A DNA stretch of 64,000 nt from positions 1,205,415-1,269,414 of the forward strand of contig JAYQJO010000001.1 in NCBI GenBank assembly GCA_038142205.1, read 5' to 3'. A program made the position numbers and the translations under genes. The notes beneath the pieces are model-generated. The model ran no database searches, was not told the origin of the DNA, and was given only the letters and a program-made list of their open reading frames with translations. Of this stretch, positions 43,378 through 63,687 are shown one piece after another; positions within the stretch are counted from its first letter, which is position 1, and each line of letters opens with the position of its first letter. Source of the DNA: Pseudomonadota bacterium. Its GTDB lineage: Bacteria; Pseudomonadota; Gammaproteobacteria; Eutrophobiales; Eutrophobiaceae.

Positions 43378-43453
43378 TCCCCGGTAGCTCAGTCGGTAGA
43401 GCGGGTGACTGTTAATCACTAGGTCGGCAGTTCGAGCCTGTCCCGGGGAGCCA
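43378..43453 (+). tRNA. tRNA-Asn (anticodon GTT)
   Basis: Manually folded cloverleaf: acceptor TCCCCGG/CCGGGGA, D-arm GCTC-AGTCGGTA-GAGC, anticodon loop CTGTTAA, T-arm GGCAG-TTCGAGC-CTGTC, discriminator G, encoded CCA. Confidence 0.85.
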
Positions 43454-45651: not shown

Positions 45652-45684
45652 CAAAAAAAGGGTTTCACAATGAAACCCTTTTTT
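45652..45684 (-). terminator. Bidirectional rho-independent terminator downstream of galU
   Basis: A7-gggtttca-caa-tgaaaccc-T6. Confidence 0.7.
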
Positions 45685-45705: not shown

Positions 45706-46587
45706 CTACTTTACTGTTTCGAGATAAGTTTTAAACGCTTCTTTTATATCTGGATCTTTTAATGCATATTCAACTGAAGCCTGCATATAACCTAGTTTCG
45801 AACCACAGTCATATCTTTTTCCTTCAAATTCATAAGCAAAAACAGATTCTTTTTTTAATAATAAACTTATTGCATCGGTAAGCTGTATTTCATTACCCGC
45901 ACCCTTTGGTGTTTCTTCTAAGCAAGAAAATATTTCGGGACTCAACACATATCTTCCTACGACACCTAAAGTAGAGGGTGCTTTTTTCGGCTCAGGCTTT
46001 TCAACAATACTATTTATGTTAAATAACGACGCATCATCTGTTGATGATGTTTCAACAATGCCGTATTTAGAGGTATCTTCTTTGGGTACATTTTCAACAG
46101 CAATAACACTTTTTATTTGTTGTTGATATTTTTCAACCATCTGTTTGGTAACACCCCGCCCACCATCATCAATTAAATCATCAGGTAAAATGACAGCAAA
46201 TGGTGAATTACCTACAACAGGTTTTGCACATAAAACAGCATGACCCAGTCCTAATGGTTCAGCTTGACGTATGTATATACAAGTAACATTACCAGGAATT
46301 ATCTCTCTAACAATTTGAAGTTTTTCTGTTTTTCTTTTTTTCTCTAACTCTGTCTCAAGCTCATAAGCTTTATCAAAGTGATCTGTAATCGAGCGCTTTG
46401 TTCTACCTGTGATAAAGATGAGTTCTGTCATTCCTGCAGCAATCGCTTCTTCAGCAGCATACTGAATAAGGGGTTTATCAACTATAGGAAGCATTTCTTT
46501 TGGATTTGCTTTTGTAGCGGGCAAAAAACGGGTACCCATGCCTGCTACAGGGAAAACTGCTTTAGTTATTTTTTTCATACGTTTCAT
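45706..46587 (-). CDS. galU: UTP--glucose-1-phosphate uridylyltransferase
   Basis: 293 aa with [34 protein letters not shown] signature. Confidence 0.9.
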
Positions 46588-46690
46588 TTACTGACATGAA
46601 TCACGTTATCGCAATCTGTTTTTAATGATGGTATTAAAATACAAAGAGACTCTTTTAGTTTGTTATCGTCAACTTTATTAATAGAATCTA

Positions 46691-48429
46691 TTATTTCTTA
46701 ACTTTAGCTTCTATTTCTTTCAAATTAATTACAGGGTGTTTTGCGAGTAAAATTTTACTATGCGATGTTTGTTCTCGGCACTCATCATCGTAAAATAATT
46801 CTTCATACATTTTCTCGCCTGGACGCAAGCCGGAATATTCAATATTTATATCGCTATATGGAAGCAAGCCGGAAAGTTTAATCATTTGTTCAGCAAGATA
46901 ATTAATTTTTACCGGCATTCCCATATCTAAAACATAAATTTCACTACCGCTCCCCATAGCATTTGCTTGCAATATTAACTGGCATGCCTCAGGTATAGTC
47001 ATGAAATAACGTGTTATATCTTTATGAGTAACAGTTACAGGCCCACCTTTTCTTATTTGTTCTTTAAACAATGGTACAACACTACCTTCTGAGTCTAAAA
47101 CATTACCAAAACGTACTGTTATAAAATGCGTACTACTGCTTTCACTAATAATTTCCGTATATATTTCAGCTATACGCTTTGTGGCTCCTAAAATATTAGT
47201 TGGTTTAACTGCTTTATCAGTAGAAATTAAAACAAAACTTTCACAACTGTTTTCGTGAGCCGCTATAGCTATATTCTTTGTTCCTAATATATTATTTCTA
47301 ACAGCTTCACGAGGTTGTCTTTCTAGAATCGGAACATGCTTATATGCCGCCGCATGAAAAATAATATCTGGCTGATACTGTTTAATAGTTTTATCGACTA
47401 AAGTTTTATCGCACAAATCACCCAGTATAAATTCGCATTTTACATTTAATTGTGACAAAGACTGTTCAGTCCGATACAAGTTAAATTCATTTATTTCAAA
47501 TACTATTAATAAAGATGGTTCTAATGAAGCAATTTGTTTACATAGCTCAGAACCAATAGACCCCCTCCTCCAGTTACTAAAATCACTTTATTACTAGTAC
47601 TAGTTTGTATCTCCTGCCAATCTAATTCAACCTTTTCTCTGCCCAATAAATCCTCAATAGATACCTCACGAAGTTTAGAAAGAGCTTCTTGACTTCCAAC
47701 CATATCTTGAATACTTGGTAGTGTTCGAATTGGCAGACCCGTTCCCTCACATATATTCACTATTTTCTGCATTTGAATACTTGTTGCAGATGGAATCGCT
47801 ATTATTATTAGATTTATATCAAATTGCTGTATAAATTCTTGTACATGTTTAATCTCTCCATAAATTTTTATTCCATGAATTTGCGAACCTTTTAGTGAAA
47901 CATTATCATCTAATATAGCTATGGGCATATAACTACCTTCTCTTAAGCTTTCCCTAATTAGTAATTCTGCAGCTCGCCCAGCACCAATTATTAATACACG
48001 TTTATTATCTATCATTGAATTCATAGATAATCTGCGATCTTTCCATAGGCGATAACCTAATCTAGGAGCGCCAAGTAAAAATATTAGAAATACCGGATAT
48101 AAAATTAGTATAGATCTAGGAACACCATCCAATCGATTAATGTAAAATAAAAAGATAGCTATTATTATTGTCCCTACGAAAGAAGCGCGAAATATATTCC
48201 ATAGATCGGGCAAACTCGCAAAACGCCATAACCCGCGATAAAAACCAAATAATTTTGAAATACCGCCCTGAACAAGAATTATTAGCGGGATTGTCCATAG
48301 CATTGGGCTCCAAACATCGATTAACTGATAATCAAAGTTAAATCTTGCCATCCAGGCTAATAACCATGCGAACACGATCATTATTAAATCGTGAATAATT
48401 GCTAAGTGACGGTTATTTATACGGGGCAT
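46691..48429 (-). CDS. Membrane-anchored UDP-sugar 4,6-dehydratase / polysaccharide biosynthesis protein (WbpM/CapD/PglF family), frameshifted at C5 run 47561-47565
   Basis: ORF 47521..48429 gives the N-terminal TM region plus the start of a Rossmann motif (VILVTGGGG). One extra G restores GSIGSELCKQIASLEP... into ORF 46691..47479 (HAAAYKHVP etc.). Confidence 0.8.
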
Positions 48430-48489
48430 AACTTATTTAAAATATATATATTAATTAATCAAAAAACTATATCAAACTTTACCATACGG

Positions 48490-49704
48490 CTATTTTGAAC
48501 ATGCATGCAAAAATACTTTATGCACTGCTTTAGCCACATCCATTAAGTCGTTTTCAGTATTTCCAGGATGTATTAAAAAAGCAAGGCTGGATCTACCCAA
48601 TTTGTTAGCATTATGCAGAGATGAATAATCTTTTAGTTTTAAATTTTCAAATGCCGTTTCACGATATACTTCCGGACAACTACCAATAAAGCAAGGAACT
48701 CCTTCTGCGCATATTGCACCTAGAATTTTTAATTGATCCCAATTCGATTTTAAATAACTTGACTCTATAAAAGCATATAAACGGTAATAGCTATGCTTAA
48801 TATCTTCTGGTGGATTAGGTATAGTTAGAGCGGGGATATTTTGCAGTTCTGAAGTTAAAAGCTCAGCATTACGTCTACGTTGCACCAACCATTGTGGTAA
48901 TTTTTTTAGTTGAATACGTCCTATAGCAGCCTGCATTTCTGTCATTCTATAATTTGAACCAAAAGAATCATGCAGCCATCTAAACCCAATTTTTTCAGCT
49001 GGGCTATGGCACAAAGTATAGTTTTTTCCATGATCTTTATATGACCATGCCCGTTCAAATACTTCTTGATTGTTGGTTAGCAACATTCCACCTTCCCCGC
49101 CAGTAGACATAATCTTGTCTTGGCAAAAAGAGTATGCTGCTACATCTCCAAATGAGCCTACTACTCTATTCTTATAGGTCGCTCCATGAGCTTGTGCACA
49201 ATCTTCAACAATATATAAATTTTTCTGCTTGGCATATTCAGATATTGATGTCATGTCACAAGGCCACCCACCAAGATGTACAACGATTATTCCTTTTGTT
49301 CTTTCAGTTAATACTTCACTAATTGTCTCAACACTAATATTTTGTGAAACAGGTTCTATATCTGCAAAAACAGGTGTAGCACCGCATGCCACTACAGAAC
49401 TTGCAGATGCAAAAAATGTTCGACTTGGCACAATAACTTCATCACCCTTTCCAATTCCTAATGAACGAAGAGCTAACTCAAGCGCTACTGTTCCATTTGC
49501 AACGGCAACAGCATATTCAACGCCTACATGACTTGCATATTCTTTTTCAAATGTTTTGCATTCTGTACCTGTCCAATAATTAACTTTTCCACTGCGTAAT
49601 ACATTCATCGCAGCGTCGACTTCATCTTTTTCGTAGACAGGCCAAGGTGGGTTTTGATTGACCCTTATTTTTTCACCACCATCAATTGCTAATAAATTAC
49701 TCAT
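48490..49704 (-). CDS. DegT/DnrJ/EryC1/StrS-family PLP-dependent sugar aminotransferase
   Basis: 404 aa; DegT-family sugar aminotransferase signature (the PLP-binding Lys region is not pinned to a specific residue). Confidence 0.75.
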   Translation of the reverse strand: MSNLLAIDGGEKIRVNQNPPWPVYEKDEVDAAMNVLRSGKVNYWTGTECKTFEKEYASHVGVEYAVAVANGTVALELALRSLGIGKGDEVIVPSRTFFASASSVVACGATPVFADIEPVSQNISVETISEVLTERTKGIIVVHLGGWPCDMTSISEYAKQKNLYIVEDCAQAHGATYKNRVVGSFGDVAAYSFCQDKIMSTGGEGGMLLTNNQEVFERAWSYKDHGKNYTLCHSPAEKIGFRWLHDSFGSNYRMTEMQAAIGRIQLKKLPQWLVQRRRNAELLTSELQNIPALTIPNPPEDIKHSYYRLYAFIESSYLKSNWDQLKILGAICAEGVPCFIGSCPEVYRETAFENLKLKDYSSLHNANKLGRSSLAFLIHPGNTENDLMDVAKAVHKVFLHACSK

Positions 49705-50350
49705 TATTTTTTACTACACGAGCAGGTGAACCAACAACAATTTTACCAGATGGAACATCATTAATCACGGTAGAGTTAGCGCCAACTACTGAACCCTCTC
49801 CGACTCTCACCCCTGATAAAATAACAGAGCCTGCACCTATAAATACGTTTTTTTCTACAACAACTCCGCCACACAGTGTAGAACTTGGCGCGACATGTAC
49901 ACCACTATGAATTTCACAATCATGCTCGATTACTGCATTAGAATTTATAATCACGTTTTTATTAATTTTAACGTCAGGATTAATTACAGCTGAAGGCATT
50001 ATCATTGAACCACATTCAATATCTACATCACTACTAACATATGCACTTGGGTGCACAACTGTAGTCAATTTAAAATCATTTTTAACAAGCCACTCTGCAA
50101 CTTTCAACCTTACTTGATTATTTCCTATTGCTACAATACCAGCATCCACATTATTACGCTGAGCAATCAACTCTTCTCTCCCACCAATACACTTATAGTT
50201 GAGAACCTTAGTGTTCCTTGTGTTTTCATTATCATCAATTAAAAATGTTAACTCAAACTCGTCAATACTACGTACAGAATCTGCAACGATTTTTGCATGA
50301 CCACCAGCCCCATAAATAAATATCGATAACTTATTCATCTGCTGACTCAT
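49697..50350 (-). CDS. Sugar N-acetyltransferase (left-handed beta-helix hexapeptide repeat; PglD/NeuD family)
   Basis: Rossmann-like N-terminus IFIYGAGGHAK followed by hexapeptide repeats. The start was chosen at an internal Met to avoid overlapping the upstream gene; the track ORF extends to 50380. Confidence 0.65.
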   Translation of the reverse strand: MSQQMNKLSIFIYGAGGHAKIVADSVRSIDEFELTFLIDDNENTRNTKVLNYKCIGGREELIAQRNNVDAGIVAIGNNQVRLKVAEWLVKNDFKLTTVVHPSAYVSSDVDIECGSMIMPSAVINPDVKINKNVIINSNAVIEHDCEIHSGVHVAPSSTLCGGVVVEKNVFIGAGSVILSGVRVGEGSVVGANSTVINDVPSGKIVVGSPARVVKNNE

Positions 50351-50922
50351 TCCCTTTGAATTTTGGCATAGTATTATCACTTGAATTATTCACACCGCTT
50401 CCTTTTACCACATTTAAAACAGTCAATATTAAAATTTTAACATCAAATAAAAGGTTATGATTATTAACATAATACACATCCAATCTTAATCGTTCGCCCC
50501 AAGATGTATCATTTCTTCCATTAACCTGAGCCCAACCCGTTATCCCGGGCTTAACATCATGTCGACGACTTTGTTCTTTATTATATAACTCTAAATACTC
50601 AATCAATAATGGTCTCGGGCCTACAATACTCATTTCTCCTTTGATCACATTATAGAGCTGAGGAAATTCATCAATACTAAATTTACGTATAAATTGACCT
50701 AGTGGAGTCATTCTTTCCATATCAGGTAGTAGCTCACCATTGGCATCTCTGAGATCTTTCATAGTTCTAAACTTATATAATTTAAAAGGCTTTGCATGCT
50801 TCCCTGGTCTTTTTGAACAAACAAGATTGGAGAGCCGAGAGACACTAAGATTAATAAAGCAGCAACAACCAAAACAGGAAAGAGAAGTATCAATAGTGAT
50901 ACAGATAAAACCAGATCAAATA
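50331..50922 (-). CDS. Undecaprenyl-phosphate sugar phosphotransferase (PglC/WbaP C-terminal domain family; initiating transferase), frameshifted at T5 run 50810-50814
   Basis: The track ORF holds the catalytic domain (PRPLLIEYLELYNKEQ, VKPGITGWAQV). The upstream frame encodes the PglC-type N-terminus VKRIFDLVLSVSLLILLFPVLVVAALLILVSLGSPILFVQK from a GTG start. Confidence 0.75.
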
Positions 50923-50928
50923 TTCTTT

Positions 50929-52047
50929 TCACAGCTTCATTACTTTTATTATTTCATTATTAATCAGTCTGACATCAAACTTACTTTCTACAATTTCACG
51001 GCTAACCTTACCCATAGTTGAAGCTAAATTATTTGATGAAATGAAGTTTTCCATTGCAATAACTAACTCATCAACATTTTTGACTGTTATCAAAAACCCG
51101 TTCTTTTTATCAATAACTGTTTCACGGCAGCCCGGAACATCTGTTGTAATAATAGCTCGTCCCATTGACATTGCTTCCAAAACTGATCTTGGCATTCCTT
51201 CACGATAAGAGGGCAATACAACTACAGATGCATCTCTTACATAGGGCCTTACATCATCCGTCTCTCCTAAATAATCAATCATATTTTTATCCTTTAATTT
51301 TTTCAAATCATCAAAAGATATTGCAGACGGGTTATCATCGAGAGGCCCTAGAACCTTAAACTCAATCTTAGGGTACTTTTTTTTTCAATCTTCTTGCTGC
51401 TTCTATATACTCCATTATTCCCTTATCTTTTAATAGCCTGGCGACCATCAAAAACACTAGATCTCGTTGTGGTAATGGCTGAATCTGAAAAAAGTCTGTA
51501 TCAACACCAGAGCCATTAGTGATCGAGTAGCTCGACTCTTTCTTAATAATTTTATTACTAATAAAAACATCCCTATCATCTTTATTTTGAAAAAAACATT
51601 CGTATTATTTTTCAATGCCAGCTTATACATTCTTGGCACTATTAGTTTTACTACTTTTTGTCTAAATGTTCTTGCTTTAAGAAAAGTACTACCTAAGCCT
51701 GTTATTAATGCATATTGACGCTTCACTCTACAAATTTTTGCTGCAATCAATCCATATACAACTGGTTTAATTGTATAACCGACAACAATATCTGGCTTAA
51801 TTTTTAAAATTAATTTAATAAACCAAATAATTAAGACTAAATCCTTAAATGGATTAATCCCCGTCCGCTCTAATGGTAATGAGTAGTAATGACTTCCCCT
51901 ATTATTAAACCACTCACTTACCTGCCTATCTTTCCCACCTGCGCATGCGAACACATCATGCTTTCGATTCAATAATTCATCTATCAGATTACCTCTAAAA
52001 TTGATGAGTGAACGAGGCCAACTTCCAATAATTAATATTCTTGACAC
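50929..52047 (-). CDS. Glycosyltransferase family 1/4 (GT-B fold), carrying two homopolymer frameshifts (T9 at 51377-51385; A7 at 51590-51596)
   Basis: ORF 51457..52047 is the N-domain. A third frame gives GSGVDTDFFQIQPLPQRDLVFLMVARLLKDKGIMEYIEAARRLKKK. ORF 50929..51306 holds the EGMPRSVLEAMSMGRAIITTDVPG C-domain motif. Confidence 0.7.
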
Positions 52048-52137
52048 AGTTAATTAATTTTAATTTTCATATTCAATAGAACACTTGAATATGTGCTTTT
52101 AAACAATGAATAGTTTACTAAAATTGTACTTATTACA

Positions 52138-52865
52138 TTAAGTTGGTCTGCATACTAATATGAATGACTGAGCAAATTTTTCTGGTATTTTTAAAAACCT
52201 GCATATTTTTTCAATGGGGATTATTAGCTTTGATGCTAATAAACCTAGCCATGGACCTGTCCTAGGATAAAAACTATAAAACATTACTTTTTCTATTTTA
52301 AAACCAGATTCTTTCAACTCAGTTTCAATGCAGCTTAAACTCATCGTGTTTGCTATATTTTTATTCTTTATTTTGTTTCTAATTCTATAAACCATGCCAA
52401 GCGGACTATCAGAATTAACATGTACATTAATCACCAAATACCCATTTTTGTTGATCATATTATACATTTCATTCAAAACATCGAGCCTTAACTGTTTTTG
52501 AGCATTTAAGAAAAACGAAATGCAGTTATTACATCAAATTTTTCATTCAAACTATTTGAAGTAATGTCTTGCTTTAGAAGCTTAGAATTGACGCAGTTAG
52601 CCTTCGAGATCTCAAGCATACTATCAGAAACATCAACTCCACACGTATCATCAAAATAACTTTCAGCTAATTTTATAATTCGACCAGTACCACAAGCAAA
52701 ATCTAAATATTTCACTTTATTTTCGCTTGAAATTTTTTCAAAGATATTTTCTAAAAGAGGCTTTTCTAATAAAGACCACTGTGAACCATAAAATCCTACC
52801 TTATAAGTTTCTGAGTAGAATTTTCCATACCCATCACTAGAGTGGCTTTCTCGATAATCTTGCAT
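52138..52865 (-). CDS. Class I SAM-dependent methyltransferase, frameshifted at A5 run 52511-52515
   Basis: N-terminal ORF has motif I LDFACGTGR. One added base joins ...AFRFFLNAQKQLRLDVLNEMYNMINKNGYLVI to the C-terminal ORF. Confidence 0.7.
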
Positions 52866-52902
52866 ATAACTAACCTGATAAAATTTAAATAGACTTCAGT
52901 TA

Positions 52903-54033
52903 TTAAGTAGAAAACAAACTTCTGTATGTTTGGTCATATGATTCTAGACATTTACTCCAGCCAAAATTTTCTTCAACTCTAATACGACTATTATTAGCCA
53001 TCTTCTCCCTAAGTTGCTTATCATTGCCCAAACGAACAATTGCATTACATATTTGTTCTGGGTTTTTAGAGTCCACCAGAATCCCATTAAAGTCATTAAT
53101 AACAGCTTCTGGATTACCACCTACTTTAGTTGCTATAACTGGGAGGCAATTACTCATCATTTCAAGAATACTGTTGGAAAAACCTTCTTCATGTGAACAT
53201 AACAACCCGATATCAGCTGCTTCTAAATACTCAGTCACATTGTTTTGTGGACCAAACCAACGAACATTATTTATTAAATTAAGTTCCCTTGTTTTTTCTC
53301 TAAGCATCAAGCCATAGCCATCATCTCTTCCCACACATAATACTTCCCAATTCTGTTTAATTTTACCCTTTAATTTGACCAGCGCATTTAACAAGTCCAT
53401 ATGCCCTTTGTATGTCATTAAGTTTGCTACCACTACTATTACCAAGCTATCTTGACTGATTTTAAGTTCATCTCTTTGCCTTATTTTAACTTCACTTGTA
53501 ACTCTATCTCTCAGAGTTACACCGTTATATATAAGACCTAACTTATGCTCAGGAACATTCTCTTTCTTTAATTGTTCTAGCACACAATTTGAATTACCTA
53601 ACATAAAATCAATTTTATTGTGCAACCAATATTCTAGTTTTTTTAGCAATTTATATTTACTTTGATAATTGTTAAGACATCTTCTGCTCATCACTCGTTT
53701 ACTACCAGGGAAAAATAAAGAACATAGTCCCCCTACTAAATAAGCTTCAGGCAAGAAATAATGTGTCACATCCGGTTTTATTTTATGAATATAAAAGAAT
53801 AATTTTGAAAAGTTTGTAAGTAAATTAAGAGCTTTATTGGTTTTAATAGTACCAGTTAACATCGTCACATCAGCAGTTAAATATTTACTTTTCTGAACCT
53901 CATTTCCTTTCATAACATACAGATAAACATCATATTTTGACTTATCAAGCATATTTGATAGATGTATCAAATGATTTTCAGTGCCACCTATTCCCAGTTG
54001 ATTGATCACGAATAATATTTTTATTTTTTGCAT
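52903..54033 (-). CDS. Glycosyltransferase family 4 (GT1 superfamily)
   Basis: 376 aa; C-terminal EGFSNSILEMMSNCLPVIATKVGGNPE motif. Confidence 0.75.
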   Translation of the reverse strand: MQKIKILFVINQLGIGGTENHLIHLSNMLDKSKYDVYLYVMKGNEVQKSKYLTADVTMLTGTIKTNKALNLLTNFSKLFFYIHKIKPDVTHYFLPEAYLVGGLCSLFFPGSKRVMSRRCLNNYQSKYKLLKKLEYWLHNKIDFMLGNSNCVLEQLKKENVPEHKLGLIYNGVTLRDRVTSEVKIRQRDELKISQDSLVIVVVANLMTYKGHMDLLNALVKLKGKIKQNWEVLCVGRDDGYGLMLREKTRELNLINNVRWFGPQNNVTEYLEAADIGLLCSHEEGFSNSILEMMSNCLPVIATKVGGNPEAVINDFNGILVDSKNPEQICNAIVRLGNDKQLREKMANNSRIRVEENFGWSKCLESYDQTYRSLFST

Positions 54034-54051
54034 TTGATCTATTCTCTGCTA

Positions 54052-54885
54052 CTAATCAACAGTATTATGCTTAAACTTATTGAATAACATATTAATTGCT
54101 GCTTTTTGTTTAAGGCTCTCACCATACTGTTTATTAAAATAACAATATGCAGTCGCATATGAAAACTTGTCAGCCCAACTCATGTCCACATCACATTCTG
54201 ACTTATCTCTATAACCTTTTAAAAATGCTTCTTTTAATGCAGGAAGCTTATTCCATTTCATATGAAAATAGTTCCATACTGGTACTAACCCATTCAAACA
54301 AGAAATCATATTTCCAATATCGATATATATTGGACCTAAATTACTTGTCCTAAATGTTGTGAAGTTATTAGGAGAGGCATCATATATTACGATATTATTC
54401 TCTCCGTTTATATTATTTACACTAATATTCGAAAAACCAAAATCACAATGCATGTATGTCATAGGCAATCTTCTTGTATAACTATCAATGTCATTAACCC
54501 CGCATTTCCTCATTGCTTTGATAAACGGCTCAGAAGGGAACCAGTAATTTCTTTCATTAAGCATCATACTATTGTGCAATGTTGCTAATACGCCTCCTAC
54601 TCTCTCAAATAATGAAACAGCATCTCTTTCTTTAATAAGATCTTTCATGAAAGCAATATATTCTTCTCTTATAGATTTTTCTGATTTTATATTCTCAAAC
54701 TTTACGGTATTTCCATTCTTTTCGAGTGGCTCAGGAAATATAAACGCGAGCTTTTTAGACAAATCAAATATATGCCTCGATTTTATGTACTCCTTATCAG
54801 AGTCAACATCATATTTTTTTATAACCTCATTATCTTTTAGAAATACATTCTTACTTTTATTTAAATATATATTCTTATCTTCCAT
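54052..54885 (-). CDS. Protein-kinase-like fold phosphotransferase (APH/choline-kinase/LPS-kinase-like) embedded in the polysaccharide cluster
   Basis: 277 aa with Brenner catalytic motif HCDFGFSN (HxDxxxxN) and downstream IDIGN (DxG-like metal-binding) motif. Confidence 0.5.
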   Translation of the reverse strand: MEDKNIYLNKSKNVFLKDNEVIKKYDVDSDKEYIKSRHIFDLSKKLAFIFPEPLEKNGNTVKFENIKSEKSIREEYIAFMKDLIKERDAVSLFERVGGVLATLHNSMMLNERNYWFPSEPFIKAMRKCGVNDIDSYTRRLPMTYMHCDFGFSNISVNNINGENNIVIYDASPNNFTTFRTSNLGPIYIDIGNMISCLNGLVPVWNYFHMKWNKLPALKEAFLKGYRDKSECDVDMSWADKFSYATAYCYFNKQYGESLKQKAAINMLFNKFKHNTVD

Positions 54886-55003
54886 ATTTTATACTCTATA
54901 CATCATTTTATTTTCCAATAGACATTTTCTAATTAATAAGAAAAAACATGCAGACTGAATCAATGCAACCACCAACTCAATAATTACTGCACCTACAATT
55001 CCA

Positions 55004-56166
55004 TTATCTGGAACCACCATAAAACAGCCGATAGAAAGCAACAGCAAAGAGAAAAAAACTTACAATCAATTGTGCTTTAAATTGCCTAATCGCGGTTAAC
55101 ACATATACCATGTATAAAACCATATTATTTGCAGCAGCAGCAAACATTATTAATAAAAGCTTGTCTGAATGGCCTGACAATTTGTCTCCATAGATTACTG
55201 AAATAATAAAATCGCCAAAAAAATAGATGAAAAACATTCCTAGCGTACCAATTACCATGCCTGTTATTGCAAGCCTATATAACAACCCCATAAATTCTTT
55301 ACTGTTTTTTTTCATGATAACACTTTGATAATTTAGATAAATAAGGTGTTCCAAATGAAGCTGCAATAAGTGAAGAAGCTACAGAAAAATATACAAGTGC
55401 AGCATAAATACCCAATGTACTTGTGCCATTATAAAAAGCTATAAAATATTTTGAAATATTTGGTAATAAAGAAGAAAAGAAAGCAACTCCACACAGGGGT
55501 AATGCTAAAAAGAAAATTTCTTTTATACTCTCAAGACGACCTTTGAAAAAAAAAATTCAGTACCGAAGGAGATGATAACTCTGTTTTTAATAATACTGCA
55601 TTCAAATCATATAATAATAATATAATCACATGACTAACAATCAACCCCAACGCAATATGAATTAAATTCCCACCTTTATAGATAATTAAAATTGAAATGA
55701 TTACTGAAACAATTGATTTCAATATTAACGATAACCCAACATTGAATAAATCATCGTTCTTTTGAAAAAAACCATAAATAATATCACTTAATGATTCAAA
55801 ACACTTTGCGCCCGCGATTATCAGCAAAACCCAACGCATATGAGCATTATCAATAAAAACAAATGAATAACTTATAATTATAAACAGGGCTGTCAAAGAA
55901 GTGATAAATCGCAAACTATAATAATCCGTGTTGGCATGCTCTGCTTTAGCATCAGATGTTATCACAAGCCTCAAACGCATATTTGTTAACATAAATACAG
56001 GGGCAGAAATAGCAAAAGCTAGTGCGTATATACCTACTGAATCTAAACCTAATACATTTGTAATTAATATTACTATTAACCATGAACTTGCCGCATAGCC
56101 AATATTACCAGCTGTATACCAAAGTGAATTTTTTAGTATTGAATTACTTAATAAACTTCTTAACAT
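55004..56166 (-). CDS. wzx: Wzx-type O-antigen/polysaccharide flippase (MOP/PST family), with at least two frameshifts in A10 (55546-55555) and T8 (55305-55312) runs
   Basis: Hydrophobic N-terminal ORF 55531..56166 and C-terminal ORF 55004..55366. A third frame across 55367..55530 gives membrane-protein-like sequence (LALPLCGVAFFSSLLPNISKYFIAFYNGTSTLGIYAALVYF...). Confidence 0.6.
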
Positions 56167-56218
56167 AAATATTAATACAACTATATTTTAATGCCGCATT
56201 TTCATATAGAAAAAATAT

Positions 56219-58170
56219 TTAACTTATCCACTTTTCATACCAAGATTGAAACATAATAACATTCCATAATTGATGATGACAATTTCTTACGCCAGACTGA
56301 TGATCTTCCCATGCTTTCTTTATTACATTGCTGTCTAACACTCCTTGTTCTTTAATTTTTTCATAATCTAATAAATCCATTGCCCATTTTTTTAAAGGCC
56401 CTCTCAACCATTTATCTAATGGAATACCAAAGCCCATTTTGGGTCGATTTACCAACTCTTCAGGGACATGCTTATACAATACCTGTCTCAATAAATACTT
56501 GCCTTGATTATTTTGTATTTTATATTTGATTGGAATCTGCCAAGCAAAATCAATCAAGTTGTGATTTAAATAGGGAACCCTACTTTCTAAACTAACAGCC
56601 ATCGAAGCTCTGTCTACTTTAACAAGTACGTCATCGGATAAATATTTAACAGTATCGTTATATAACATTTTTTTGGTTGCTGTTAAATTCTTCATGACTT
56701 CATCTTCTACACGGTTATTAACAGTATTATGATTAATCACAATTTTAGAATTAAACCACGTTGAAGTAAGCGATCTATAGAGTTCATCATCACTTTCCAT
56801 ATTTAGTACGCGACCAATTTTATGAATTTTTTCGCCGGCTAATCGCAATTGATAATTTACTGGAATATATTTTGATAAAGTCTTATAAATTGTATCCCAC
56901 TTTTCTGGTGAAACACCTAACAGTATATTCCCAAGAAACATACGTATGCTAGAAGGTAGTTTATTAGCTCTTTCACTAATATTATAGCTATATACATGTC
57001 GGTTGTAGCCGCAAAATAATTCATCAGCCCCATCACCAGATAACGCTACTTTAACTTTTGTTTTAGCTAATTTTGAAACCAAATAAGTAGGGATTTGCGA
57101 AGAATCTGCAAAAGGTTCATCATATATATCGGCTAATAAAGGAATGGTTGCCATTGCGTCGGCAGATGACACTATCATTTCTGTATGATCTGTCTTTAGG
57201 TGCTCAGCTACAGCACGTGCTTGTATCGACTCATCATATCCAACTTCAGAAAAACCCATAGAAAATGTTTTAATAGGGTTTACTGATTGTTTTTGCATCA
57301 AAGCTACAACCAACGATGAATCAATACCTCCAGATAAAAATGCACCTATCGGAACATCAGAAACCATACATGATTTAACTGCACTTTTAAGCCGTATTTC
57401 CAATTCATTAACAAGTTCATTTTCATTGAGGCCAGTGATAGGATTTTGTTCTCCATGTTCAACTACATCTTTAAGGGACCAATATGATTTAACATCAGGT
57501 AGCTTACCTACTGAATTTAAATTAACCTTGCAAAATGAGCCAGACTCTAATTTACGGAAACCTTTGAAAATACAGAATGGAGAAGGGACATAAGAATATT
57601 GAAAAAATCCTGATAGCGATTCAATGTCTAACTCTGGCTTGAAGTCAGGCCAAGCTTTGAAAGCTTTGAGCTCAGATGCAAACATAAAAACACCTTTATA
57701 CCAGCCATAGTACAATGGCTTCTCACCAAGCCTATCCCTACATAAATATAACGTTTTATTTTTTTATCCCATACAGCTATCGCAAACATTCCTATTGTTT
57801 TTTTTATAGTTTTTTCAATCCCCCATTTTGATACACTTTCAATCAATACCTTGGTATCTGAATGGCCATCAAATTCAACACCCTCTGCTGATAATTGCTT
57901 ACGCAGCTCTAAAAAGTTATAGATTTCTCCGTTAAACACCATTACATAGCGACCACATGTTGAGTGAATTGGTTGTCCGCCAGTTTCACTAAGGTCAATA
58001 ATAGAAAGCCTTCTGTGCCCCATTGCAATACTATTATTTTCTCCGCACCATATCCCTATTGCATCTGGTCCACGGTGAGTTAAAGATTTAGCTGATTCTC
58101 TAACAATAGAGTCGACGGGCCGTTCTGGCATTGAGTTTGGGTGGATTAAAAAGCCCGTTAGACCGCACAT
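56219..58170 (-). CDS. Asparagine synthase (glutamine-hydrolysing)-family amidotransferase (AsnB/WbpS-like), frameshifted at T7 run 57759-57765
   Basis: ORF 57628..58170 has the N-terminal Cys2 GATase domain (MCGLTGF...). ORF 56219..57715 has the synthetase PP-loop SGGIDSS. The junction ...FAIAVWDKK/NKTLYLCRDRLGEKPLYYGW is restored by one added base. Confidence 0.8.
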
Positions 58171-58248
58171 GATAATTTTTTTTTCATAGGAATTGATTCT
58201 TAAAAATAACTTTCAGCAGTAGAAAAATATAAATTTCTAGTATTTATA

Positions 58249-59613
58249 TTACTTAGATGATGTAGTACTTATTCTTGAAGCTGCATATAGTAGAATTATC
58301 ACAAACCAAAATAAGGGATGCCTTAAGGTTAGATGTGCCGAAGAGAATATTAATAAAGCAGTTAAAGCAAAAAGACCGTGAAAGTCTTTTTTTAACAAAG
58401 TTAAATAAGCTACCCTACCAGCGAACAGAAAAAATATTAATACGCCAACGATGCCAGCATTGGTTAATAAGTCCAAGTATGTGTTATGAGATTCCATACC
58501 CATAAATGGAGCTTCTATACCTGAGTAGGCACCAGGGCCAAATCCGAATACAGGTGAGTATTTCCACGCTTCAATACTATTTTCATATAAATACAATCGT
58601 GCATTTATCTTCCCTTCCTCACCCCCAGTGACTTTCTTAGTCATACTATCCTTCTTATTCTTATTCTTATTCTTATTCTTATTCTTATTCTTATTCTTAT
58701 CGTCAGCATAAATTCCATCATTTTTAACATCAATTTTTTTAATTATTCCTGATGCGACTTTCGAATACAAAATTCCAGACATATACATTGAGCTATTACC
58801 TGGCCTCTTAAAAATATCATCAGCGAGCATATAAAACATCACGCCTGTTATCAAAACTAGCAAGGGGTAAAGCCAAAAGTAGTTTGTTTTTTTTCTACAT
58901 GATAGATAGGCAATAAACATGATTAAATAAAATACTGCTATTATTTCTACAGCACTACTTAATGCATCCGATCTTATATGCCATCCCATCCAAAATATTA
59001 AGGTTATAAAAATAGCGAATATGATTTTATTTTCCTTAGTTATTTGCCTTATTGCTAAAAATGGCAACAGACAAAATAAAAGGGCTAACTGATTTGGGTT
59101 TTTCGACCAAGCGCTGAAACGTGTAGCATTATGATAAGAAGTTAATCGCAAATTCTGGTACCAGTCAGTACTCAAACTAAAATGCTTTATTGATATCTCA
59201 ATAGAATACGCAACTAATAGTAATGACACAGAAATATATATTAGATATTTTACTATTCTTTCCGCGCTTTCTGAAAAAAAACAAATCCTCGTATAAATTA
59301 ATAAACTTACAAATGCTGCATAACAATAACCGATCGTGCTGTGTAAGACAATTGAGCCTTTAGGTAAATTCAAATACTGGCTCATAAAAACGCCCAACAA
59401 TATTGATGTTAATAATGCCGACCAAAAGTATAAAATCGGCTTTATTTTAACCATCAATTCTTTATAGCCTGCTTTTTGCAGCACTTGATAAAATATGCTG
59501 AAACTTAAAAGTATCATTAATACTTCACTAAGCCCGACAGGAAGATCAAAAAATCTTAAATTAGTTGCAGCAGATAAGAATAGAGCAAGAGCAAAAATAA
59601 AATCAATCATCAT
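58249..59613 (-). CDS. wzy: O-antigen polymerase/ligase-family membrane protein (Wzy_C domain) with an internal (Lys-Asn)8 low-complexity loop
   Basis: 454 aa polytopic protein with Wzy_C-type motif ESHNTYLDLLTNAGIVG in a large loop. The KNKNKNKNKNKNKNKK stretch is encoded by the hexanucleotide repeat at 58654..58701. Confidence 0.65.
   Translation of the reverse strand: MMIDFIFALALFLSAATNLRFFDLPVGLSEVLMILLSFSIFYQVLQKAGYKELMVKIKPILYFWSALLTSILLGVFMSQYLNLPKGSIVLHSTIGYCYAAFVSLLIYTRICFFSESAERIVKYLIYISVSLLLVAYSIEISIKHFSLSTDWYQNLRLTSYHNATRFSAWSKNPNQLALLFCLLPFLAIRQITKENKIIFAIFITLIFWMGWHIRSDALSSAVEIIAVFYLIMFIAYLSCRKKTNYFWLYPLLVLITGVMFYMLADDIFKRPGNSSMYMSGILYSKVASGIIKKIDVKNDGIYADDKNKNKNKNKNKNKNKKDSMTKKVTGGEEGKINARLYLYENSIEAWKYSPVFGFGPGAYSGIEAPFMGMESHNTYLDLLTNAGIVGVLIFFLFAGRVAYLTLLKKDFHGLFALTALLIFSSAHLTLRHPLFWFVIILLYAASRISTTSSK
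58654..58701. repeat. Hexanucleotide tandem repeat (CTTATT)7 plus one imperfect unit inside the wzy coding region
   Basis: Read directly; in-frame and encodes (NK)n. Confidence 0.9.
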
Positions 59614-59708
59614 TGTTATGATTTATTAGTCATATTCTAATGAATATCTATAAATAATTTTTATTGTGTTTTTATATAAGTCTATCAACATATTTTATGT
59701 CATTAAAA

Positions 59709-60596
59709 TCATACAAGATACTTAACTTCTGAACCTTCGCCGATTTCTTCTTGCAAAATTAATTTTTCATTTTCTTTTTTCCACAAACTTCCTTGCTCAA
59801 CTTCGATTCCTTTTGATAGCACATTTCGAGATATTGCGACCACTCCTCCTTCTTTTAAATACATTCTTATATTTTCAATCCCTAATCTAATTTGATCATC
59901 TGAAAAATATTGTTTATTTAGAAGGTTACTAACTCTTATCACATCAAATTTATGATGTAGCTTTACATTATATTTGAAACAATCCTGTTCTATTAAAGAA
60001 ATACTTTTGTTGTTACAAACCAGTGGATTAAGTAAAGATATTGTATGTGACTCAACGAAGGAACTACGGAATTTACTTAATTTTAAATAAATACTGGAAA
60101 AAAAATTAGAAAATATGCACCACTTGTGTTCTGAATCAGGCAGCCTTAATCCCAAGCGCCAAACTCTTAAAAGTACAGGACCCCCTGTAGTTGCGCGATA
60201 TTCTTTAAGAAAATATTTTTTATAAACCTTTAATTCTAGAAATTTATCCATGATTGTTACGCTTATTTTTTTTTCCATAAATTCTGTTTGCAGGAACTCC
60301 TGAAGCTCTAGCGTTGTTATTCCATCAGATGCGCCTAAATCCAATATAGTTATAGAATCATAATTGTGTTTTTTTAAGTTACGTAATAAAAGTTTAGATA
60401 CTCCTACTAATCTTCCTGAATTTGTTCTTTTCCATGTATTTTCAATTCGCACGTCGTCTAAGATTTTACTAAATTTTTTAGTCAGCTCAGGAGTCCAATC
60501 TCCTGATTGATACTTTCTCAAACATTCAAAATCAGCATGAAAAACATACCTCCAAATCCTCTGATCAGGGATTGCTCCTTTAGAAATTATTTTCAT
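59709..60596 (-). CDS. Putative SAM-dependent methyltransferase-like protein (FkbM-like?)
   Basis: 295 aa; the only recognisable element is a glycine-rich motif-I-like segment ILDLGASDGITT. Confidence 0.35.
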   Translation of the reverse strand: MKIISKGAIPDQRIWRYVFHADFECLRKYQSGDWTPELTKKFSKILDDVRIENTWKRTNSGRLVGVSKLLLRNLKKHNYDSITILDLGASDGITTLELQEFLQTEFMEKKISVTIMDKFLELKVYKKYFLKEYRATTGGPVLLRVWRLGLRLPDSEHKWCIFSNFFSSIYLKLSKFRSSFVESHTISLLNPLVCNNKSISLIEQDCFKYNVKLHHKFDVIRVSNLLNKQYFSDDQIRLGIENIRMYLKEGGVVAISRNVLSKGIEVEQGSLWKKENEKLILQEEIGEGSEVKYLV

Positions 60597-60608
60597 GAAT
60601 AAAAATGA

Positions 60609-61781
60609 TTAGATATTGTTTAATGTCATTTGTGTTGCATTAATCATTTTTCTTTTGGAATACTTACCTATAATATAATTTCTAATCTCTGATGAATCAT
60701 AATTTCCGGACTTATAATCAGAGACAACTGATGACCATGCACTGGCTAACTCACTTGGGGAACCAATAGGCACAACCTTTCCAAATATAGAAATAATTTC
60801 TTTGACATCACTAACATCTGTCGAAACGCAAGGGTTCCCACAAGACATACCTTCTATAATAACATTTGGGAATCCTTCTGATTTTGAGGTTAGAGTAAGA
60901 ACATCGATCGCATTATAGATTTCAACCATGTTTTCTTGTTTACCTAACCAAGTCACGTTATTTTCTAATCCTAATGACATTGATAAGCTTTGTAATTTTT
61001 CAAGTTCTTTATCCGCCCCTTCTCCAACACATATCAATTTAATATTATTATCATGCTGACAATAAATTGAAGCTGCTTTTAAAAATACGTCATGTGCCTT
61101 TAATGGGTGAATTCTTGCAACCAAGCCAATGATTATCACTTCATCAGCAACACCTATTTTTTTGCGCCAAGACTTGCCCTGTTCTGGCTCATATTTATAT
61201 TCGTCTGTGTCTACGCCATTATTAATAACTGTCCAGTTTTTGCATTTGAACCCTTTATCAATATGAAACTGCATAACTTTATTAGAATTAGCAATAACAT
61301 TTTCAATCATACCAGAGACATATTTACAAAATAAAAATGGAATTTTTACTTTTAAACTGCCGCCAATCCCAGTAGATCTCACACCCCATACTAACTTACA
61401 GTTACTTAAACTTAAGCTTACTAATAATGCAATAAAATTTGTTAACTCTAGCATGCTATAAAGAATAACTGATTCATTCTTTTTAAGTAATTTTCTAAAT
61501 TTAAAAAACCAAAAAACTGGAAATAAAAAATCTAGATACTTTAAAGAACATCTATTCAATAAAGGTATAACATCAATTTCACTATTAACTTCTTTACTTA
61601 GAATCAAAGGATCGCTCTTCAACAAAGTAATGATGGTTACTTTAAATTCTTTCTTGCTTAACCCATTAGCTAATTCTATTAGTTGTCGCTCAGTACCCGC
61701 ATACTCGATACTGCCAATAAAAAATACTAAATTTTTCAGCTCTAAACCTTTCTCTAGTTCTAAATTACATCCAGCGTTCAT
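60609..61781 (-). CDS. Glycosyltransferase family 4
   Basis: 390 aa; C-terminal EGFPNVIIEGMSCGNPCVSTDV motif. Confidence 0.75.
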   Translation of the reverse strand: MNAGCNLELEKGLELKNLVFFIGSIEYAGTERQLIELANGLSKKEFKVTIITLLKSDPLILSKEVNSEIDVIPLLNRCSLKYLDFLFPVFWFFKFRKLLKKNESVILYSMLELTNFIALLVSLSLSNCKLVWGVRSTGIGGSLKVKIPFLFCKYVSGMIENVIANSNKVMQFHIDKGFKCKNWTVINNGVDTDEYKYEPEQGKSWRKKIGVADEVIIIGLVARIHPLKAHDVFLKAASIYCQHDNNIKLICVGEGADKELEKLQSLSMSLGLENNVTWLGKQENMVEIYNAIDVLTLTSKSEGFPNVIIEGMSCGNPCVSTDVSDVKEIISIFGKVVPIGSPSELASAWSSVVSDYKSGNYDSSEIRNYIIGKYSKRKMINATQMTLNNI

Positions 61782-63687
61782 GCCATGCCTGAAAAACGAG
61801 AATATCCCATAAATAATATTGCCAATTCTTTTTGCCAGATAAATGCTCTTGCCATTTTTTACTTATCAATTTTGAATTTAAATATCCTTCTTGTCGAATT
61901 CTATTTTCATTTAACAGACTATCTGCCCACTCTCTTAAAGGACCTCGTAACCAATTATCAAGAGGAACTCCAAAACCCATCTTTGGCCGTTCAAATAATT
62001 CTTGGGGCACGTACTTCTGCAACACTTGCCTCATCAACCATTTACTTTTTCCATTTCTAATCTTGAATTTCAATGGTAATTGCCACGAAAACTCTACTAC
62101 CCTATGGTCAATTAATGGTACTCGTGCTTCTAAAGAATTAGCCATACTGGCTCTATCAATTTTAGTAAGAATATCATCTGGTAAATATGTGTGATAATCT
62201 AAATACTCCATTCTTTCTATATATTCAGGAAGAAAACCTTGTATTGCCTCATCCCAAATAGCCCCTTTCTTTTCTTCACTGTTTAATACCAACTCATTAG
62301 GATTTTTCCAATGACTTAACAGGTATCGATAAAGCTCATCATCATTCTGCAGGAGTATGTCAGGGATTTTTCTAATTTTTTCGCCGAATTTAGAATCAGT
62401 TAAGCATGTTGGCATGGCATTTGAAAAAGCTCTTAAACGACCAGATTTTATGGAATTAATCATTAAAGATAATCCGTTTAAAAATGAATCAGGAAGTCTT
62501 TTTCTACTACGTTGTATTCGTTCAGCTAAAAAGTACCTATCATATCCAGCAAAACACTCATCACCACCGTCTCCAGATAATGCAACAGTGACATGTTGTC
62601 GTGCTAACTCAGAAACTAAAAATGTAGGGATCTGTGACGAATCAGAAAATGGTTCATCGTAAATATCCGGTAATTTTGGAATAACATTAAGCGCATCATC
62701 AGACGATACATATAATTCTGAATGATTTGTTTTTAAATGTTTTGCAATTATCGCTGCATGTTCTGCCTCATTATAGTTACTCTCTTCAAAACCTATGGTG
62801 AATGTGTTTATTGGACTTGATGATTGTGCTTGCATAAGAGCGACAACTAATGACGAATCAATGCCTCCAGAAAGAAAAGCACCCAATGGAACATCTGATA
62901 TCATTCTTCGTCCGACAGCATCTAACAATAATTCATTTAGTTTATTTGTAGCTTCAAAATCATTGAAATCAATTCTATTATAACTAGCTCGTTGAACAAT
63001 ATTAGATAACGACCAGTATGAATTTATTTTTGGTTCTTCTCCTAACCTGACTTTAAGAATACAACCTGCTTCAAGTTTAAATACGTTTTGATAAATAGAC
63101 ATAGGTGCTGGCACATAATTATGTCTCATAAAGCTGGCGAGAGCATCACGGTTTATACACGGACTCCATCCTTTATGTGCTCTTAATGCTTTTAGTTCTG
63201 AACCAAATAGGAAAAGACCATTAAAATTCCCATAGTACAATGGTTTTATTCCCATCCTATCTCTTACTAATGATAGTAAATTTAATTTACTATCCCATAC
63301 AGCAAAAGCAAACATTCCAATTAGTTTAGATACTGTATTTTCAACTCCCCACGTAGCGATAGCTTCAAGAAGTGTTTCTGTATCGGAATCACCTCGAAAA
63401 TTAATACCTAGTGATATTAATTCCTTCCTGATCTCAATGTGATTATAAATTTCACCATTATAAACCAAAACCCAACGGCCATTGTTTGACATCATTGGCT
63501 GCCGTCCAGACTTTGAAAGATCTATGACAGCTAGCCGAGTATGTCCAAGAGTAATCCCTTTATTCTTATCTACCCAAACACCTTGATCATCAGGCCCCCT
63601 CTTTCTAAGGATCTCAGTCATTGCAGAACAATCCGACTGCAATGATTCAATCGAATTATTAGTAAGTATTCCAGTAAGACCACACAT
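61765..63687 (-). CDS. Asparagine synthase (glutamine-hydrolysing)-family amidotransferase, second intact paralogue
   Basis: 640 aa: MCGLTGIL... GATase domain, SGGIDSS PP-loop, colinear with the 56219..58170 gene. Confidence 0.85.
   Translation of the reverse strand: MCGLTGILTNNSIESLQSDCSAMTEILRKRGPDDQGVWVDKNKGITLGHTRLAVIDLSKSGRQPMMSNNGRWVLVYNGEIYNHIEIRKELISLGINFRGDSDTETLLEAIATWGVENTVSKLIGMFAFAVWDSKLNLLSLVRDRMGIKPLYYGNFNGLFLFGSELKALRAHKGWSPCINRDALASFMRHNYVPAPMSIYQNVFKLEAGCILKVRLGEEPKINSYWSLSNIVQRASYNRIDFNDFEATNKLNELLLDAVGRRMISDVPLGAFLSGGIDSSLVVALMQAQSSSPINTFTIGFEESNYNEAEHAAIIAKHLKTNHSELYVSSDDALNVIPKLPDIYDEPFSDSSQIPTFLVSELARQHVTVALSGDGGDECFAGYDRYFLAERIQRSRKRLPDSFLNGLSLMINSIKSGRLRAFSNAMPTCLTDSKFGEKIRKIPDILLQNDDELYRYLLSHWKNPNELVLNSEEKKGAIWDEAIQGFLPEYIERMEYLDYHTYLPDDILTKIDRASMANSLEARVPLIDHRVVEFSWQLPLKFKIRNGKSKWLMRQVLQKYVPQELFERPKMGFGVPLDNWLRGPLREWADSLLNENRIRQEGYLNSKLISKKWQEHLSGKKNWQYYLWDILVFQAWHERWM

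Follow-up and report, generated by a model that had tools for sequence, protein, structure and literature searches.

The stretch of DNA considered here, 64,000 nucleotides of a gammaproteobacterial genome (contig JAYQJO010000001.1; the whole of it is called the window in what follows), carries a polysaccharide operon of the Wzx/Wzy-dependent type, and within that operon lies a gene encoding a kinase-like protein of 277 amino acids (Table 1). I propose that this kinase is one half of an undescribed and widespread two-gene module, found in several phyla, in which a methyltransferase is teamed with a kinase of interchangeable fold (APH-like, canonical APH, or P-loop), often next to Wzx or fused with it, and that the module would put methyl phosphate on undecaprenyl-linked Wzx/Wzy repeat units. 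Taken whole, the proposal is a tentative one. What leads to it is the company that the kinase keeps.

A kinase and a methyltransferase encoded together

The best clue to function is the tight pairing of the kinase, across phyla, with a dedicated methyltransferase, a pairing absent from the initial annotation of the window. Among close relatives with readable flanking sequence, which are the loci that this statement covers, the methyltransferase is the gene adjoining the kinase in L003, L004 (partial), L005 to L009, and L011 to L013. In the window and in L001, a metagenome cluster collinear with it, a single gene separates the two, encoding a family 4 glycosyltransferase (GT4). Where the spacing could be taken, in 44 loci, the median is -3 nt when the kinase comes before the methyltransferase and -9 nt when it comes after, that is, the genes usually overlap or abut. 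L010 is the locus of P0176 (312 amino acids), the most distant of the relatives looked up. A methyltransferase of the partner family was not found there, and the only class I methyltransferase, an unrelated one, is encoded two genes upstream. All of the recovered kinase loci are set in polysaccharide clusters of the Wzx/Wzy/Wzz type.

The partners are class I methyltransferases dependent on S-adenosylmethionine (SAM), about 245-270 amino acids long, and they form one family, with 34-48% identity across Proteobacteria, Planctomycetota, and Myxococcota. Beyond SAM binding they have in common the motifs YRxSH, LDFACGTGR, FRFFLNAE, NxHxN, and PRxG. The copy in the window is broken by a frameshift, and in its two frames it is 73-75% identical (tblastn) to the intact ortholog of 242 amino acids in L001 (L001:12041-12769).

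Then there are the natural fusions. Protein P0157 (524 amino acids) consists of the kinase and a methyltransferase of the partner family, P0071 of GT4 and the kinase, and P0086, P0126, and P0169 of Wzx and the kinase. Five further representatives have an unannotated domain with multiple transmembrane segments fused to the kinase, and fusions to Wzx or to such a domain total 8 of the 150 best family matches.

The same question can be put from the other side. With only the methyltransferase as its seed, a metagenome scan gave 80 loci. Forty of these with a full-length methyltransferase were decisive, and in 29 the kinase is directly adjacent; the other 11 lack it, although their flanks extend 1.5 kb or more in both directions (20 more loci were too short to judge). 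At least 6 of those 11 loci without the APH-like kinase have a different kinase-like gene beside the methyltransferase or fused to it. In L046 (L046:5639-7372) it is a canonical PF01636 protein, with the motif HGDLWPGN, right after the methyltransferase. In L082 (L082:4251-5729) a P-loop domain (GGPGSGKT; similar to SKI and AAA_28) and the methyltransferase occupy one open reading frame (ORF). Just upstream of the methyltransferase in L021 (L021:3-2669) lies a protein that joins a P-loop domain to a Wzx-like membrane domain, and in L026 (L026:5743-6447), L063, and L067 small P-loop proteins resembling dNK, AAA_33, or thymidylate kinase lie beside the methyltransferase.

That the same family of methyltransferase is teamed repeatedly with unrelated kinases has the look, as far as sequence can tell, of a single module in which non-orthologous kinases have replaced one another. 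Because the methyltransferase is repeatedly teamed with unrelated phosphotransferases, and because fusions of the kinase to the methyltransferase and to Wzx recur, the two enzymes would appear to catalyze consecutive steps. This is the strongest evidence for such a sequence of steps. It also makes the module a clean case of non-orthologous replacement, one that offers a ready comparative test.

The kinase family

The ORF is a real gene and not a chance reading frame, since it has an ortholog in L001 (L001:10001-10846) that is 73% identical and since the divergence between the two is low at nonsynonymous sites (dN 0.17) where synonymous sites are saturated (pS 0.74). The initial annotation had recognized no close family for its product, and scans of the protein against Pfam and NCBIfam bear this out, giving no significant match. 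(A weak Pfam match to guanylate kinase, E 0.068, was discarded as noise.) In fact the whole family is without a Pfam or NCBIfam model, and its annotation throughout is "hypothetical protein".

Searched exhaustively with HMMER, 1.84 billion representatives yielded 274 family members at E<=1e-3, of which 98 reach E<=1e-30; most of the 274 are 260-290 amino acids long. The motif H-x-D-x4-N is present in 146 of the 150 best family matches, and the remaining 4 are fragments that do not cover the region of the motif. The family is rare, yet spread over several phyla. A genome scan for homologs gave four loci in metagenome-assembled genomes (MAGs), and among MAGs and metagenomes the sources of the kinase loci are an uncultured proteobacterium, Phycisphaerae, Pirellulaceae, and Myxococcota. 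A homolog search with a profile of 127 family sequences brought up 7 proteins and no named or cultured member.

The aminoglycoside phosphotransferase family PF01636 has no match in the window kinase, which does not reach the gathering score. It is matched weakly by 58 of 127 relatives at E<=0.1, with a best E of 1.2e-7. The kinase family is a remote and unmodelled branch of the APH/choline-kinase-like kinases.

Fold and active site

An AlphaFold (AF2) model of the kinase, built with 12 homologs, has a mean predicted local distance difference test score (pLDDT) of 85.4 and a predicted template modelling score (pTM) of 0.86, and it shows the bilobal fold of kinases. In structural comparison the model scores 14.5 with Bud32, 12.5 with WaaP, and about 10 with RIO kinases, Foldseek being concordant, and small-molecule kinases outscore both Bud32 and RIO. 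The structural matches include choline and ethanolamine kinases, LicA, and PsiK, and AmiN is a close structure. A profile of 127 family members finds TP53RK/Bud32 as its best match in the PDB (E 1.5e-8), and hhalign aligns the kinase with APH(3')-IIIa (sequence verified against 1j7i) at 76% probability over the pre-catalytic insert and the catalytic loop. The insert ahead of the catalytic loop that is typical of APH is seen both in the model and in this alignment. The initial annotation had assigned the protein to the protein-kinase fold, in the group of APH and choline kinases, and that assignment is almost certainly right.

Conservation was measured in an alignment of the 127 family sequences, whose mean column identity is 24%. 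Five residues, H104, H146, D148, N153, and D169, are invariant, and K23, K35, D189, Y225, and a few others are at least 90% conserved. Three of the five belong to the catalytic loop, HCDFGFSN, a Brenner motif that hhalign places on HGDLGDSN (H188/D190/N195) of APH(3')-IIIa. The ORF listing and the sequence agree with the initial annotation on the bounds of the gene and on its two motifs, HCDFGFSN and IDIGN. The catalytic Asp of the first, D148, the absence of which would have counted against a kinase, is among the invariant residues. From these features I would predict with good confidence that the protein is a catalytically active kinase.

The second motif requires a different reading. It had been taken for the metal-binding motif, and the residue that best fits this role lies elsewhere. 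D169 is invariant, it stands 21 residues past D148 and directly after strand 162-167 of the model, and it is aligned with the Asp of the DFG motif of TP53RK/Bud32 (IVLIDFG). Its invariance, its position after that strand, and the TP53RK alignment make it, therefore, the second metal ligand. D189 of IDIGN, conserved in about 90% of the sequences and found at the start of a helix, is probably a structural Asp at the helix N-terminus rather than a metal ligand, and by position its counterpart would be the structural Asp found in the WYDIA motif of APH or in FDIGNHF of choline kinases. The distinction matters for any mutagenesis.

The path proposed

The kinase would work as follows. K23 would hold ATP, D148 would serve as the catalytic base, N153 and D169 would bind Mg2+, and D189 would be structural. 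Using ATP at the cytoplasmic face of the inner membrane, beside the Wzx flippase, the kinase would phosphorylate a sugar hydroxyl of the repeat unit while this is linked to undecaprenyl diphosphate. The partner methyltransferase would then act on the product of the kinase, most likely methylating the new phosphate and leaving a methyl-phosphate substituent. Any product made in a Wzx/Wzy cluster would be a substituent of the repeat unit.

The steps of this path do not all deserve the same trust. I think it likely that the kinase acts on a glycan or repeat unit, and phosphorylation of a sugar of the repeat unit, one of the possibilities raised in the initial annotation, appears to be the most plausible part of that annotation. 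That methyl phosphate is the product comes close to an even chance without quite reaching it. The fold, the conservation of the catalytic residues, the genetic tie to the methyltransferase, and the polysaccharide setting are shown; I infer that the acceptor is a lipid-linked glycan, that phosphorylation precedes methylation, and that the methyl group goes to the phosphate rather than to a hydroxyl. A more elaborate version, in which AsnB joins the other two in a three-part module with a phosphoramidate, MeOPN-like product, was considered and dropped as a correlation with cluster type. Six of 8 close relatives have AsnB in the vicinity of the kinase, vs 1 of 16 more distant loci (at least 8 kb) with kinase and methyltransferase.

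If the proposal is true, then methyl phosphate, or at least a phosphate installed by a kinase, decorates Wzx/Wzy repeat units and is not confined to the chain-end signal of pathways that use ATP-binding cassette (ABC) transporters, and the annotation of such clusters changes. A family of kinases now annotated as hypothetical proteins gains a name and a testable activity, and a charged substituent of the immunodominant type becomes predictable from sequence.

Known systems that resemble the module

There are two characterized precedents for a kinase and a methyltransferase that modify a glycan together. WbdD of E. coli O9a and Klebsiella O3 is a bifunctional methyltransferase-kinase chain terminator, with a Src-like kinase, that attaches methyl phosphate to a hydroxyl group of a sugar in an undecaprenyl-linked glycan (PMC3482155). 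ORF6 of Klebsiella pneumoniae O7 combines a methyltransferase with a cryptic AmiN-like kinase (catalytic residue D441) and in vitro produces first phospho-rhamnose and then methyl-phospho-rhamnose (PMC11231755). Both are chain terminators with coiled coils, serving ABC-transporter pathways (PMC3482155, PMC11231755).

The system in the window is like WbdD in that a kinase-fold enzyme is genetically coupled to a class I SAM methyltransferase in a polysaccharide locus. The likeness is one of functional analogy and not of detectable sequence homology, because hhalign shows no usable similarity between the two. With the kinase domain of O7 ORF6 the similarity is indirect only, AmiN being a close structure both of that domain (PMC11231755) and of the window kinase. 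The differences lie in architecture. WbdD is one protein of 708 amino acids, with a coiled-coil ruler, that caps chain ends in an ABC-transporter pathway, whereas the window has two small stand-alone proteins in a Wzx/Wzy cluster. The kinase has no coiled-coil extension to its 277 residues, and loci of the family have Wzx, Wzy, or Wzz in place of the ABC-transporter (Wzm/Wzt) context.

Other relatives are further removed. Compared with the APH/choline-kinase-like kinases APH(3')-IIIa, AmiN, LicA, maltokinase, and PsiK, the window kinase is short, it lacks the glycine-rich loop, and it is set in polysaccharide assembly and not in resistance or metabolism. Its identity to solved kinases is 8-16%, and the distance from the Mg-binding Asp to the structural Asp is 20 residues, vs 12 in APH(3')-IIIa. 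WaaP and the Kdo kinases (PF06293), which act on lipopolysaccharide (LPS), also have the kinase fold and phosphorylate LPS sugars on the cytoplasmic face; the window kinase does not carry the PF06293 signature. The module is a new variant within an established theme, that of kinase and methyltransferase modifying a glycan together, and its kinase family is itself unannotated.

Objections and alternatives

Several facts weigh against the proposal. In the literature searched, methyl phosphate is found only at the chain termini of ABC-transporter-dependent O-polysaccharides and in Leptospira lipid A. No homology to WbdD (of E. coli HS) is detectable, the hhalign probabilities being 9% for the kinase and, in an alignment confined to the SAM motif, 48% for the methyltransferase. 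For every member, the functions ascribed to kinase and methyltransferase are predictions drawn from sequence, model, and context. In this genome six genes of the operon, among them those for Wzx, the methyltransferase, and the initiating transferase, are broken where L001 is intact, mostly at homopolymer runs, between 46691 and 58170 of the window, with the kinase and the adjacent GT4 intact, so the pathway may be dead here, or the cluster misassembled. Finally, the profile of the methyltransferase matches generic class I methyltransferases, sugar N,N-dimethyltransferases and phosphoethanolamine N-methyltransferases among them; no residue, sought as a phosphate-binding signature, separates kinase-linked from kinase-free methyltransferases in the two decisive groups; and four methyltransferase loci have no kinase of any sort. 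Because the conserved residues are equal with and without a kinase, and because of those four loci, the methyltransferase may methylate a hydroxyl independently of any phosphate.

The last objection leads straight to the main alternative, that the two enzymes act independently, one hydroxyl receiving a simple phosphomonoester from the kinase and another position being O- or N-methylated by the methyltransferase. They would be inherited together by way of one epitope or one Wzx substrate. Besides the kinase-free loci and their unremarkable residues, it has in its favor that the PDB profile matches of the methyltransferase are ordinary O- and N-methyltransferases. It is hard to square with genes that overlap or abut, with the fusions of kinase or P-loop domain to methyltransferase, and with the repeated replacement of the kinase, all of which argue for consecutive steps on one substrate, and I consider it rather unlikely. 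A different view makes the acceptor soluble, ethanolamine, choline, or another amino-alcohol, with the methyltransferase N-methylating the phospho-product as a phosphoethanolamine N-methyltransferase does, or as in PsiK/PsiM, to yield a phosphocholine-like group. Choline and ethanolamine kinases, LicA, and PsiK do figure among the structural matches, the methyltransferase profile matches phosphoethanolamine N-methyltransferases at about 1e-6, and in L062 (L062:5783-8024) the methyltransferase is followed immediately downstream by a group II pyridoxal phosphate (PLP) decarboxylase and an NTP_transf_2 protein (a nucleotidyltransferase of the Pol-beta type). What one would look for from the lic pathway is missing, however. 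No family member matches PF01633, linkage of the licB/licC/licD type was not found, and the window, L001, and the two compact loci L011 and L012 have neither a cytidylyltransferase nor a LicD-like transferase. The operon has GalU, a housekeeping enzyme, as its one NTP-transferase (TIGR01099, 381 bits, above the equivalog cut-off of 327), and the joining of the kinase to Wzx or GT4 in relatives suggests that the substrate is a membrane-bound glycan. A soluble acceptor is improbable on these grounds, and the addition of phosphocholine or phosphoethanolamine, which the initial annotation had suggested, loses its footing; the remark made there that no LicC-like nucleotidyltransferase adjoins the kinase holds good. 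(The search for a LicC-like partner ended in its rejection, the NTP-transferase downstream being GalU.)

Two further readings concern the kinase more than the pair. It could be a regulatory protein kinase or ATPase, akin to Bud32 or RIO, whose target is the assembly machinery, or else a scaffold with no catalytic activity. TP53RK/Bud32 is, after all, its best sequence-profile match in the PDB. Yet small-molecule kinases score higher than Bud32 and RIO in structure, the APH-type insert is present, and all catalytic residues are invariant, hence no pseudokinase, and I regard either role as very unlikely. Scarcely more can be said for an anomeric sugar kinase, resembling NahK, AmgK, or maltokinase, that makes a sugar-1-phosphate for nucleotide-sugar synthesis. 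A dedicated nucleotidyltransferase is linked to the kinase in no locus, and such an enzyme would account neither for the methyltransferase at its side nor for the fused forms with Wzx or GT4, which makes the idea hardly credible. Consecutive phosphorylation and methylation of a lipid-linked repeat unit is the reading that I prefer to all of these.

The operon and its state in this genome

The initial annotation placed the kinase within an O-antigen cluster. Pfam and NCBIfam uphold a polysaccharide cluster, which may make O-antigen or else a capsule or exopolysaccharide. The order of its genes is AsnB-like, GT4, an ORF of 295 amino acids, Wzy, AsnB-like, Wzx, kinase, GT4, methyltransferase, glycosyltransferase, PglC-like, PglD-like, aminotransferase, WbpM/PglF-like dehydratase, and GalU.

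Table 1. Features of the operon and of the kinase gene, with interruptions relative to L001 (positions in the window; aa, amino acids)
Feature	Positions	Strand	Interruptions	Basis
Wzx/Wzy-dependent polysaccharide operon	45706..63687	minus		Pfam and NCBIfam; collinear with L001
Kinase-like gene, 277 aa, ATG start	54052..54885	minus	intact	sole ORF in ORF listing with exactly these bounds
K23 codon in VIKKY, putative ATP-binding beta3 lysine	54817..54819	minus		>=90% conserved; strand 20-24 of model; assignment inferred
Catalytic loop HCDFGFSN, residues 146-153 (H146, D148, N153), Brenner motif	54427..54450	minus		read from sequence
D169 codon in IVIYDAS, DFG-equivalent Mg-binding Asp	54379..54381	minus		invariance, model, TP53RK alignment
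IDIGN, residues 188-192, with D189	54310..54324	minus		>=90% conserved, not invariant; start of helix 186-197 of model
Partner class I SAM methyltransferase	52144..52865	minus	one frameshift, at T5 run (ORFs of 119 + 112 aa)	Pfam methyltransferase matches
GT4 glycosyltransferase between kinase and methyltransferase	52903..54033	minus	intact	Pfam; identical order in L001
Wzx flippase, directly upstream of kinase	54910..56166	minus	three frameshifts; breaks at T10, A8, and T7 runs	Pfam Polysacc_synt; four tblastn frame segments vs 417-aa L001 Wzx
AsnB-like copy 2	56219..58170	minus	one frameshift, at A7 run
PglC-like transferase			one frameshift
WbpM-like dehydratase			one frameshift, at G5 run
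One glycosyltransferase			two compensating shifts

The breaks in the operon lie near 47560, 50900, 51300-51460, 52512, 55035, 55312, 55440-55550, and 57760. Outside the cluster, too, genes fall short in length of the other members of their 90%-identity clusters, a DUF2779 protein having 465 vs 494 amino acids and the ORF at 18398-19663 having 421 vs 566. Since genes elsewhere in the window are shortened too, homopolymer indel errors of long reads are at least as likely an explanation as true pseudogenisation or genome-wide decay. Either way, the impact of the proposal is limited for this particular genome, because the cluster is possibly inactive or misassembled.

Neighboring genes and other observations

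The 3' end of the operon, just after galU, is marked by a strong bidirectional hairpin terminator of 14 bp (45654-45684). A gene for tRNA-Asn lies at 43378-43453.

Two of the operon's genes encode AsnB-like glutamine amidotransferases, the first of them at 61765-63687 (minus strand). The second, frameshifted copy is the ortholog of the single copy in L001 (77-90% identity), and with it the first has only 49% identity. NCBIfam was run on the first copy alone, whose best match there is the amidotransferase of the XrtA/PEP-CTERM system, below the cut-off. The pair probably amidates uronic acids. The ORF of 295 amino acids (59709-60596, minus strand) has no Pfam or NCBIfam match and contains a motif, ILDLGASDG, that resembles those that bind SAM. 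It is 89% identical to its ortholog in L001, above the 57-83% of its neighbors, and it may encode a second, unrecognised methyltransferase of the cluster.

In L008, from a Pirellulaceae MAG, a sulfotransferase (PF13469; L008:9027-9926) lies directly upstream of the kinase-methyltransferase pair, which suggests a heavily anionic polysaccharide in that organism.

The proteins of the window, which is part of a 2.66-Mb contig, cluster with those of MAGs labeled "Thiotrichaceae bacterium". One of them, of 509 amino acids (13789-15318, minus strand), shares a 90%-identity cluster with proteins of Thiotrichaceae MAGs annotated "phenol hydroxylase P3 / YHS domain". It is the large subunit of a soluble di-iron monooxygenase, and it hints at a marine gammaproteobacterium that oxidizes hydrocarbons or phenol.

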